This document shows positions 16,982 to 20,888 of a DNA stretch of 64,000 nt, piece by piece (the stretch's first letter is position 1; every line of letters begins with the position of its first letter). The stretch lies in the NCBI GenBank assembly GCA_052246995.1, contig JBQPWD010000003.1, positions 147,988 to 211,987 of the forward strand. Direction: 5' to 3'. A program made the position numbers and the translations under genes. This DNA comes from Candidatus Bathyarchaeota archaeon. Its GTDB lineage: Archaea; Thermoproteota; Bathyarchaeia; Hecatellales; Hecatellaceae. Under the pieces are notes generated by a model. The model saw only the letters and a program-made list of their open reading frames with translations. It was not told the DNA's origin and did no database searches.

Positions 16982-18097
16982 GTGGATGTAGATTCAAGGT
17001 TGAGGCTTGTGGAAAGAAACTTGGAGGAGATTGTAACTAGGGAGGAGCTACGTATACTTTTAGAGTGTGAATCTAAGCCTAAAGCTTATTGGGGTTTTGA
17101 ACCTTCTGGATAGCGGTTAAACCTTAATGGTTTACCGCCCAGAGTAATGCATATAGGTACTGGACTTGTTTGTGGTTATAAGATTTTAGATATGGTTGAA
17201 GCTGGGTTTGATTTTACTATTTTTCTTGCCGATTGGCATGCCTGGATAAATGATAAGTTCAACGGGGATATGGACGCCATTAGAGAATGTGGAAGATACT
17301 TTATCAAAGCATTCTCATCCATAGGTTTGACACCTGGAAAGGTTAAATATGTTTGGGCTTCAGAGCTTCTGGAAAATCCGGAATATTGGGATATGGTTTT
17401 AACTGTTGCAAAAAAGGTTAAGATTTCAAGGGTTCTTAGGGCCCTTCCTATTATGGGTAGAGATTTGAATCAAAAAGATGTTGAAACAGCATGGTTGTTT
17501 TATCCTTGCATGCAGGTTACGGATATTTTTAGACTGGATGTTGATTGTGCATGCGCAGGAATGGATCAGCGTAAGGCTCATATGCTTGCAAGGGATGTTG
17601 CAGAAAAGATTAAAAGAAAAAAACCTATTTGTCTTCACACCCACCTTTTAGCTGGGCTTTCTGGTCCAGCGGAAAAGCATGAAGAAGTGGTTTATGATGA
17701 AGATGAAACATTAAACGTTCAAATTGGAACAAAGATGTCTAAAAGTAAACCTCAAAACTGTATATTTATCCATGACAAACCTGAGGAAATTAGGAGGAAG
17801 ATTCTAGCTGCTTATTGTCCTTCAAGAGAGGTTTTTGGTAATCCTGTTATGGAGATTGCAAAATACATTATTTTTCCTAAGGAAGGAAAGCTAATTGTTG
17901 AAAGAGAGGAAAAGTATGGTGGTAAAATTGAGTTTACAAGTATTAGTGAGCTTGAAAGAGTGTACATGAATGGTAAACTTCATCCATTAGACTTAAAAAA
18001 TAGCGTTGCTGAAGCGTTGATAAGGATACTTAACCCCGTAAGAAAGTATTTTGAGGGTAAGGAAGAGTTGATTGAAAAAATTAGAATGTTTCAATAG
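16982..18097 (+). CDS. tyrS: Tyrosyl-tRNA synthetase, split by an intron: join(16982..17111,17145..18097), 360 aa
   Basis: Exon 1 MDVDSRLRLVERNLEEIVTREEL...AYWGFEPSG. Exon 2 MHIG...ADWHA...YPCMQ..D...GMDQRKAH...KMSKS...LHPLDLK. Confidence 0.93.
17112..17144 (+). other. 33-nt bulge-helix-bulge (BHB) pre-mRNA intron in tyrS
   Basis: CTGG/CCAG 4-bp central helix, 3-nt bulges ATA and AGT, intron stem GCGG-T-TAAACC/GGTTTA-CCGC. Removal deletes an in-frame TAG and restores FEPSGLMHIG. Confidence 0.88.
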
Positions 18098-18970: not shown

Positions 18971-20888
18971 TTAAAGTATTTTTAACGCAACATTAAAAGC
19001 TTCATGAATTGCCTCTAAAGCCTTACGAGGTTCTACACAATCTCCAACCATGTAAACTTTTTCCTTAAATCTTTGTTTAAGCTTCTCTGCTAAAGCTTTA
19101 TTTGGTTTTGAACCTACAGCAAGAACTGTACTATCAGCCTTAATAAACTCCTCTTTGCCGTCCTTCTCTAAACAAAGTCCATTTTCCACTATTTTTGTAA
19201 CTTTTGCTTTTGTTAAAATTTTAACATTATGTTTTTTAAGAAACATTACATCCACCCACCTTGTTGTAACACCAACATCTTGAGCCAGTTTTTCAAGCAT
19301 TTCAATAAGAGTAACTTTCCTACCTTTTTCAGCTAAAAACTCTGAAACCCAAACTCCAACACCTCCCCCACCAACAACAGCAACCTCACCTTTAACATCA
19401 ACTTTCCCAGCTAAAACATCCCAAGCAAGAAATACGTTTTCCCTATCTACCCCGTCTATGTCTGGTACAATTGGTTTTGACCCGGTTGCAACAATAATAA
19501 CATCAGGATTGTATTCCTCAACAACATCTATATTAGCTTCAACATTAAGCTTAACATTTACATTAAGCTTCTTAAGCTGAACTTCAAAATACTCAATTAA
19601 ACATTTAAGTTCTTCATGTCCTGGAGGTTTAAATGCAAGATTTAGTTGACCGCCTAACCTTCCATTTTTCTCTAGCAAAGTAACATTATGACCTTTAAGT
19701 TTAGCTATTAAAGCCGCCTCCATTCCAGCTGGCCCCCCACCAATAATTAAAACATTTTTAGGTTGACGTGTTAACATGATTTTAACTTCACCTTCCCTAC
19801 CAGCCATAGGATTTACTAGACATGTTACATCTCTATTGGTAAACACCATGTCAAGACAACCCTGGTTACACGCTACGCACGGTCTGATATCCTCAATTCT
19901 ACCTTCATAGGCTTTTTTGGAAAATTCAGGGTCAGCTATTAATGGTCTACCTATGCGGATAAAGTCAGCTTTTCCCTCGCGAAGAATTTTTTCTGCAAGT
20001 TCAGGAGTGTTTATTCTTGTTCCAGCAATTACAGGTTATAGTTAGGATTTTCTTAACCTGCTCAGCTAAATATATAAATCCTCCTCTTGGAACATGGTAG
20101 GTTATTAAGGGTCTTGGTGATTCATGCCAACCCTCATGTGTATCTATGGCGTCGACCCCAATTTTCTCCAGTGCTTTAACAATAACTTTAGCTTCTTCAA
20201 TGGTGTTTCCCTCAGGCATAAATTCGTCAAGGGTAACCCTGCAAACAACTGGAAAATCTTTTCCAACTTTTTCCTTTATAAGCTTAACGATTTCAAGCAG
20301 AAACTTCATCCTGTTTTCTAAACTTCCACCATACTCATCTTTTCTTTTGTTTGTTACAGGAGATAAAAATTCGCTTATAAGGTATCCTCCGCCAGCCATA
20401 ACTTCAATAAGGTCAAAGTCAGCCTCTACAGCTCTTTCGGCAGCTTTAGCAAACTCTACTTCCAACATTTTAATCTCATTAACACCTAATTCTCTTGGTG
20501 TTTCACCTGTTAGACGTGATGGTATTGGTGAAGGTGCAACTGGTTGCCCGCCTACGATTGCAGAAAATGCATATCTACCAGAATGTAAAAGCTGGAGGCC
20601 AATTTTTGTACCATAATCTTTAACAGCTTTTGCTAGCCTTCTTAAACCATCAACATATTTATCATCGTAAATCATAATCATGCTTGGGGCTCCACCTAAA
20701 GGATGAACACCACACCCACCTGCAATTATTAACCCTGTACCTCCCTTAGCTCTCTCAACGTAAAAATCTATAAGCCTAGTAGTCACAAATCCATTATCTG
20801 CATAACCAAGATGAGTTGCGGACATAACAATCCTATTCATGATTTCCAGTTTTCCAATTTTACCCGTCTTAAAAAGATAATCAAACAT
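18971..20888 (-). pseudogene. Old Yellow Enzyme/FAD-dependent oxidoreductase (2,4-dienoyl-CoA reductase/NADH:flavin oxidoreductase-like), frameshifted
   Basis: TIM-barrel part (NRIVM, QLLHSGR, FLSP.TNKR.DEYGGS). Removing one extra base near 20036 restores IPVIAGTRINTPE...GRPLIADP...PCVACNQGC into the GGGPAG domain. Confidence 0.8.

Follow-up and report, generated by a model that had tools for sequence, protein, structure and literature searches.

In the available text of a 2023 review, two archaeal messenger RNAs are named as being spliced through the tRNA-splicing endonuclease EndA, those of cbf5 and HVO_1309, and more are expected (PMC10485636). The cbf5 intron (Watanabe 2002 and Yoshinari 2006, as cited in Yokobori 2009) interrupts the place of a catalytic Asp in Crenarchaeota (PMC2738675), and a history of one gain with several precise losses has been proposed for it. 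Bulge-helix-bulge (BHB) motifs come in a strict form, hBHBh', and in a relaxed form, HBh'. The latter is described, in the accessible portions of two studies, as an accepted substrate class of the (alpha-beta)2 and epsilon2 EndAs (PMC5829648; PMC3241643).

An earlier note on the DNA considered here had proposed a tRNA-type BHB intron in tyrS, the gene for tyrosyl-tRNA synthetase (TyrRS), of an uncultured hot-spring member of the Bathyarchaeia. Comparison of relatives, along with the enzyme set encoded in the genome, strongly supports that proposal. We consider it highly probable that the coding sequence of the single tyrS contains a relaxed BHB intron that is excised by EndA and the ligase RtcB; the predicted cleavage and ligation may release a circular product of 33 nt. 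Judged from sequence, the intron is one of very few known in archaeal protein genes. Full-text searches of openly available articles revealed no earlier description of a BHB intron in tyrS or any other gene for an aminoacyl-tRNA synthetase, nor of one in a protein gene of the Bathyarchaeia; the earlier note likewise knew of no archaeal mRNA intron in a synthetase.

The window (the whole stretch of DNA analysed, 64,000 nt) lies in a genome of 1.53 Mb in 17 contigs, rated 100% complete, with a GC content of 36.5%. All tyrS features described below are on its forward strand. Exon 1 (16982 to 17111) begins with a GTG immediately 3' of an in-frame TAG, and comprises 43 codons ending in AYWGFEPSG plus a single T, the first base of a junction Leu codon. 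The BHB-type intron follows (17112 to 17144; 33 nt), its 5' end straddled by a second in-frame TAG at 17111-17113. Exon 2 (17145 to 18097) supplies the TA of the Leu codon and then 316 codons, from the ATG at 17147 (MHIG...) to the stop. The start, stop, and MHIG coordinates are those of the earlier note, and all of them hold.

The exon 2 reading frame matches the tyrosine--tRNA ligase model NF006330 with 396 bits (cut-off 220) over profile positions 45-339 of 342, and it also matches PF00579. Profile positions 1-44 are absent from this frame, a stretch that exon 1 and one further codon would provide. Cutting out 17112-17144 joins T17111 to T17145-A17146, and so creates a TTA (Leu) codon within the sequence EPSG-L-MHIG. 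The genome contains no second tyrS: the only other match to a class-Ib synthetase is trpS (NF008927, 530 bits), so the interrupted gene is the genome's sole tyrS, as an examination suggested by the earlier note now bears out.

How widely is this arrangement distributed? A search with the exon 2 protein found TyrRS in all 41 of the nearest genomes. Thirty loci were fetched, and in every one the exon 1 peptide could be aligned over residues 1-43 (51-88% identity), together with an exon 2 match. The two exons are exactly one codon apart in 18 of these loci, which thus lack an intron and carry L, M, P, or F at the junction; in the other 12 (the locus itself and 11 from relatives) an extra 21-53 nt accompanies that codon. 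More broadly, GFEPSG-x-xHxG is uninterrupted in 75 of the 76 assessable TyrRS loci from Bathyarchaeia, Thermoplasmata, Thorarchaeota, Sulfolobales, and others, the exception being a relative from the same genus. Excision of the 33 nt would give the interrupted gene this same spacing.

A wider sample comprised 401 Bathyarchaeia genomes, 373 of which gave a TyrRS match. Among loci picked for suspiciously short open frames, 15 of 16 contained the insert. A DNA pattern derived from the conserved intron ends matched 28 of the 401 genomes, versus one for the reversed control; 26 of these matches lie inside tyrS, including those in two new carriers (G214 and G139), and the remaining two are chance matches in other genes. 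Three carriers fall outside the pattern: G009, whose intron is 53 nt long, and G003 and G019, whose helices differ. Inserts of 21-53 nt thus occupy precisely this position of tyrS in at least 29 genomes from seven families. This number is a lower bound, because the pattern finds CTGG-type variants only, with introns up to about 51 nt, and because the open-frame screen covered the best 150 TyrRS matches (229 further matches lay outside it). A short open frame is, moreover, an imperfect marker: G037 has the intron and nevertheless a 365-aa open frame. Carriers make up 7 of the 14 genomes sampled in the own family (f1, own genome included) and every genome sampled in six others: f3 (3/3), f7 (2/2), f13 (4/4), f18 (6/6), f21 (5/5), and f35 (2/2).

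If retained, the insert would be disruptive in each of the 29 carriers. Its length is not a multiple of three in 17, and translation through it meets a stop within the insert in 28. Cuts placed by the EndA rule (two bases into the 5' bulge, and 2 nt past the central helix) restore the frame in all 29, always with a Leu codon at the junction (TTA, TTG, CTA, CTC, or CTG). The excision of 17112-17144 put forward in the earlier note is therefore matched by the same outcome in every carrier. An insert that disrupts the gene wherever it is retained, and that shifts the frame in 17 of 29 carriers, must be removed. These counts overstate the number of independent observations, since the carriers are mutually related.

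The RNA from 17098 to 17153 has a minimum-free-energy (MFE) fold of -20.1 kcal/mol, compared with -9.3 +/- 2.5 for shuffled sequences (z -4.4; 0 of 200 as stable). A central helix, H, pairs CUGG (17106 to 17109), which lies within the Ser-Gly codons of exon 1, with CCAG near the 3' end of the intron (17139 to 17142). Both strands of H have the support of the MFE fold, of covariation, and of RNAalifold. The 5' bulge, AUA (17110 to 17112), is unpaired in both the MFE fold and the RNAalifold consensus, and places the predicted 5' cut between 17111 and 17112. Within the intron, the stem-loop h' (17113 to 17138) consists of two 5-bp segments, GCGGU/ACCGC (17113-17/17134-38) and AAACC/GGUUU (17119-23/17129-33), separated by a 1-nt bulge and closed by the loop UUAAU.

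The 3' side is less regular. The nominal 3' bulge AGU (17143 to 17145), with its predicted cut between 17144 and 17145, has a closing exon helix that is unsupported: U17104 and U17105 pair with G17144 and A17143 in the MFE fold, which does not form a clean 3-nt 3' bulge. Of the fold drawn in the earlier note, then, the 4-bp central helix, the 5' bulge, and the 10-bp intron stem stand; the clean 3' bulge, with UU/AA as its closing helix, does not, given that the MFE fold pairs 17104-05 with 17143-44. With no supported closing helix at this site, the exact 3' cut rests on symmetry with the EndA rule together with the uniform Leu result; shifting both cuts one base 5' likewise keeps the frame. 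The topology of the earlier note, in which each bulge lies 3' of its strand of the central helix, is the correct one as derived from the geometry of tRNA introns at position 37/38, and the genome's own pre-tRNA-Tyr, read by eye, fits it: CUGU(AG/G)...ACAG(AA/A), with slashes at the cuts.

Evolutionary evidence for this structure comes from an alignment of the 29 carrier introns, in which pairing was tested cell by cell. Every cell of H is paired (116/116), and two of its four pairs have changed on both sides: CUGG/CCAG is replaced by CCGG/CCGG in G003 and by GCGG/CCGC in G019. (In G019, the Ser codon TCT is recoded to AGC, with the compensating change in the intron.) In the inner helix of h', 96.6% of cells are paired and all five pairs have changed on both sides, whereas the proposed 2-bp exon helix is 67% paired and displays no covariation. 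The structure as a whole is 92.5% paired, versus 81.7% in shuffles (0 of 500 reach the observed value) and 32-45% when the partners are slid. The 5' bulge is A-Y-A in all 29 sequences. RNAalifold, to which no structure was supplied, recovers the same H and h', plus a U-A pair that absorbs the first base of the nominal 3' bulge. The residues that the inserts would encode are not conserved among the carriers.

The recurrence of one architecture at this codon in 29 genomes, compensatory changes included, far exceeds what chance would produce. Both a pattern of presence and absence and compensatory changes are thus seen in the alignment of relatives that the earlier note had called for. Because the exon helix is only 67% paired and lacks covariation, the motif belongs to the relaxed HBh' form, rather than to strict hBHBh'.

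Does the organism have enzymes to match? Its genome encodes RtcB (601 bits) and two EndA paralogs (G000 C6:127074-127625 and C7:54733-55497). The shorter of these, alpha (183 aa), matches the catalytic chain of the heterotetrameric Aeropyrum pernix enzyme (3p1z_B) with an E value of 2.7e-45; its other matches include the enzymes of S. tokodaii and P. aerophilum. Its alignment with 3p1z_B runs ungapped through the Crenarchaea-specific loop, with K39 opposite K44; in the available text of one study, K44 was shown to be the residue that recognises RNA and accounts for the breadth of substrates (PMC3241643). The His of the alpha sequence GPGVEHAPY aligns with the catalytic His of 3p1z_B, a residue for which chain 3ajv_B, identical in other respects, has Ala. 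The longer paralog (254 aa) contains both EndA domains but, read by eye, no His at the catalytic place, and its best match is an M. kandleri heterotetramer construct. A catalytic, crenarchaeal-type alpha chain with the loop lysine, accompanied by a non-catalytic paralog, makes a two-subunit EndA of the relaxed-motif class very likely; assembly of the two subunits is predicted from their sequences.

Other mRNAs in the same genome make EndA action on tyrS more plausible. The earlier note suggested scanning for further BHB-interrupted coding sequences, and two were found. In cbf5, an in-frame TAG accompanies a 21-nt insert in the codon for the catalytic Asp, the same place that the crenarchaeal intron occupies (PMC2738675, in its accessible part). 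This intron forms a textbook hBHBh' motif with a 12-bp exon helix. Among relatives, an insert of 11-30 nt is present in 23 of 29 cbf5 loci and a 24th is broken by a run of N, while cbf5 is uninterrupted in the other five and in one further listed locus (6 of 30 loci overall). The second case is a 20-nt intron in a radical-SAM gene (G000 C1:232660-232679; fold -34.8 kcal/mol, z -6.6). Versions of 17-20 nt, with BHB-preserving changes, occur in six genomes of the own family (6 of 22 loci), and the gene reads GGIATAD-CCGC straight through in the 16 other loci.

The genome-wide scan, which joined BHB detection to an ORF-fusion criterion, is too noisy for a census, as the counts for real and decoy cut sites illustrate (189 versus 189 and 189; 13 versus 7 and 7). 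When candidates are ranked by fold energy, the radical-SAM gene, cbf5, and tyrS come near the top; other high-ranking candidates, once read, prove to be plain junctions between genes (DUF357/RibL, VapB/VapC, fibrillarin and its neighbour, and two membrane-protein genes). Given this noise, further mRNA introns with weak motifs may exist unseen. Within the window, the interruption between an OYE and a pyridine-nucleotide oxidoreductase frame (about 19850-20000, minus strand) is a 1-nt frameshift and not an intron.

These features suggest a mechanism for tyrS expression. The gene would be transcribed with its 33-nt insert. In the pre-mRNA, the 4-bp helix H would form between CUGG, in the Ser-Gly codons, and CCAG, near the end of the intron; the GC-rich intron hairpin would serve as the inner helix, and AUA would be bulged out. 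The two-subunit EndA would then cut between the second and third bases of the 5' bulge, and at the symmetric site 2 nt 3' of H. Ligation of the exons by RtcB would generate the UUA Leu codon, and with it EPSG-L-MHIG, just ahead of the class-I HIGH signature.

Other explanations for an interrupted tyrS must be weighed against this one. An in-frame stop in an essential gene could mark a decaying pseudogene or an error of assembly, for which we see a very slim chance. The gene is the sole tyrS of a genome rated 100% complete, and both exons are conserved at the protein level across families. As for error, the whole stretch, unspliced, is also present in contigs from two runs labelled hot-springs metagenome (probably DNA), which may be the source of the assembly: contigs of 42 and 35 kb match the intron stretch with 0 differences. 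(A third run contains fragments of a relative only, away from the intron, and one raw-read RNA run has 0 reads on the stretch.) The same insert recurs in the 29 separate carrier assemblies, so the possibility of an assembly artefact, which the earlier note had raised, finds no support. Scarcely credible is readthrough of the stop, for example by insertion of pyrrolysine at TAG, to make a TyrRS with 12 additional residues before HIGH. The insert in this genome is indeed in frame (33 nt), and ARAGORN labels one tRNA 'Pyl (cta)'. But 17 of the 29 homologous inserts shift the frame, the genome contains no PylS above the cut-off (best 39 bits versus 178), and the inserted residues are not conserved. 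The tRNA labelled Pyl is, on reading, tRNA-Gln(CUG) with an intron that ARAGORN misplaced.

Two further proposals would leave the insert in the mRNA. Ribosomes might hop over it, as in gene 60 of phage T4, taking off at GGA and landing downstream; the context resembles a take-off site, with GGA followed by UAG and a stable hairpin, and in G003 a GGA directly precedes the resuming codons. Hopping of the gene 60 type requires matching take-off and landing codons, but a matching GGN landing codon is present in just one of the 29 carriers, and in 11 carriers no stop immediately follows GGA (GGA-CA...). Hopping has no need for CUGG to pair with the far end of the insert, a conserved feature that suits a BHB motif. 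We regard this explanation, hopping, as very improbable. Somewhat less remote, though still quite improbable, is a split gene, in which pieces of 43 aa and 316 aa (the latter from the M of MHIG) are translated separately and then assemble, the hairpin being incidental or a translational coupler. Gene callers do output both frames separately, and exon 2 opens with ATG or GTG in all 29 carriers (GTG in G001). The same Met, however, is present in intronless relatives (LMHLG, PMHIG), and so is not a dedicated start. Nor would a split gene explain the compensated helix H with its 3-nt bulge and inner helix, the restoration of one in-frame Leu codon in every carrier (29/29), or the precision with which the insert is missing, repeatedly, from sister lineages.

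On an unrooted TyrRS tree of the 30 loci, the distribution of the intron needs at least six changes, four of them forced by well-supported branches. All copies share a common site and common end sequences, so that one old gain and several precise losses make the simplest history. The intron would accordingly be old within the Bathyarchaeia and would have been precisely lost several times; regain appears less likely. No homing-endonuclease gene is found among the nine ORFs neighbouring tyrS at this locus, all of which are housekeeping genes (RpiA, L11, Spt5, TatD, DUF169, oxidoreductases, and Lhr), and no second copy of the intron, or similar sequence, was found elsewhere in the genome.

The intron may have no function beyond being tolerated. 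A bolder reading would make it a control point: output of TyrRS might be tied to the free capacity of EndA and RtcB, or TyrRS might bind its own pre-mRNA as a mimic of pre-tRNA-Tyr, and mRNAs of the Bathyarchaeia might routinely be spliced in the manner of tRNA. This we consider unlikely. The central helix, CUGG/CCAG with a bulge starting in A, may be set beside the anticodon-intron helix CUGU/ACAG of the intron-containing pre-tRNA-Tyr of the same genome; the likeness is weak, and is forced in part by the Ser-Gly codons. Were the control-point reading true, it would describe an archaeal parallel to synthetases that regulate their own production through tRNA mimicry. With such introns in at least three genes of one genome, the Bathyarchaeia would use tRNA-type mRNA splicing routinely, and splicing of protein genes by the tRNA machinery may be regular in the lineage. 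Synthesis of TyrRS, in any event, would depend on enzymes that also mature pre-tRNA-Tyr, and might be coupled to tRNA maturation as the earlier note proposed.

Genes of this kind are easily overlooked. In public collections, the 316-aa exon 2 frame appears as a protein, which in a close relative bears the name tyrosine--tRNA ligase, and the 43-aa exon 1 frame as a separate unnamed protein. The earlier note expected automated annotation to call the gene truncated or pseudo: what one finds is a synthetase that lacks its N terminus, alongside an orphan ORF of 43 aa, and no pseudogene flag. Such calls imply that pipelines miss these genes, and thereby bias estimates of proteomes and of completeness. 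The finding adds an essential translation gene to the candidates for EndA splicing, in seven families of a globally abundant uncultured class. Moreover, the 29 natural variants, with their compensatory changes, offer a test set for EndA specificity on relaxed motifs and for precise intron loss.

Among described systems, the closest is the cbf5 intron of Crenarchaeota, as presented in the accessible text of PMC2738675. Like the tyrS intron, it is tens of nucleotides long, lies in a protein gene, and has a BHB motif of the relaxed form. Each of the two introns interrupts a site that matters for catalysis and has a patchy record of gain and loss. Its hosts have the hetero-oligomeric (alpha-beta)2 EndA that is predicted here. 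The cases differ in that cbf5 splicing was shown by experiment and tyrS splicing is predicted, and in that the tyrS host gene encodes an aminoacyl-tRNA synthetase and the lineage is the Bathyarchaeia. Unlike the cbf5 intron of its own genome, with its 12-bp exon-exon helix, the tyrS intron has no long helix of this kind. The HVO_1309 mRNA of Haloferax volcanii is also processed at a BHB motif by the tRNA-splicing endonuclease; there, in contrast to tyrS, the organism is a euryarchaeon, the EndA is homodimeric, and the gene is a different one (PMC10485636, available text).

A second comparison is with mRNA splicing in eukaryotes. As outlined in the available part of PMC13149111, IRE1 and RtcB splice HAC1/XBP1 mRNA in a reaction that, like the one proposed for tyrS, is independent of the spliceosome, removes a short mRNA intron, and employs RtcB-type ligation to alter the frame or product. 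The endonuclease (IRE1) and the motif differ from those of tyrS, and the eukaryotic reaction is stress-regulated.

In its structure, the tyrS intron most resembles the non-canonical tRNA introns of the HBh' type, cut by (alpha-beta)2 EndAs with the Crenarchaea-specific loop: both have a 4-bp helix, one good 3-nt bulge, and an inner helix (PMC3241643; PMC5829648, each in its accessible portion). Unlike those introns, the tyrS substrate is the coding region of an mRNA. Since its central helix is built from codons, the constraints on protein and on RNA overlap.

Carriers of the tyrS intron are systematically mis-annotated. The exons of this tyrosyl-tRNA synthetase gene (16982-17113 and 17147-18097) are entered in public protein collections as two separate proteins: an unnamed product of 43 aa, and one of 316 aa that is called "tyrosine--tRNA ligase" in a relative.

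A second interruption in the window has a different form. An Old-Yellow-Enzyme domain ORF (20001-20888, minus strand) and a pyridine-nucleotide oxidoreductase ORF (18971-19849, minus strand) look like one fused gene, now broken. The break appears to be a single extra base near ...KKILTI/PVIAG... (19850-20000, minus strand) and is not an intron; a frameshift, an error in sequencing or decay to a pseudogene may account for it.

Two tRNA calls lie elsewhere in the genome. At C2:139181-139274 (complement), ARAGORN labels a tRNA as Pyl (cta) and gives it an 18-nt intron. Read by eye, the sequence suggests that this intron is misplaced and that the locus encodes tRNA-Gln(CUG), its bulge-helix-bulge (BHB) intron lying at the canonical 37/38 position. 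No pyrrolysyl-tRNA synthetase (PylS) scored above cut-off in the genome. The tRNA-Val(GAC) called by ARAGORN with a 741-nt intron (C9:6293-7133, complement) is either spurious or contains a large intron, which might hold a gene.

Outside the window, a radical-SAM gene is split between GGIATAD and the CxxxCxxC cluster by a 20-nt near-canonical BHB intron (C1:232660-232679; positions 361-380 of locus L137), whose fold has an energy of -34.8 kcal/mol (z -6.6). Versions of 17-20 nt occur in six genomes of the family, and the gene is continuous at 16 other loci. The protein matched no named family above cut-off.

Also outside the window, on the minus strand at C2:209579-209606 (locus L116), a 21-nt BHB intron interrupts the catalytic Asp codon of this genome's cbf5; its exon-exon helix is 12 bp long. 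Because the same codon carries inserts of 11-30 nt in 23 of 29 relatives' loci (one further locus is broken by N), this intron, classically "crenarchaeal", is widespread in the Bathyarchaeia.
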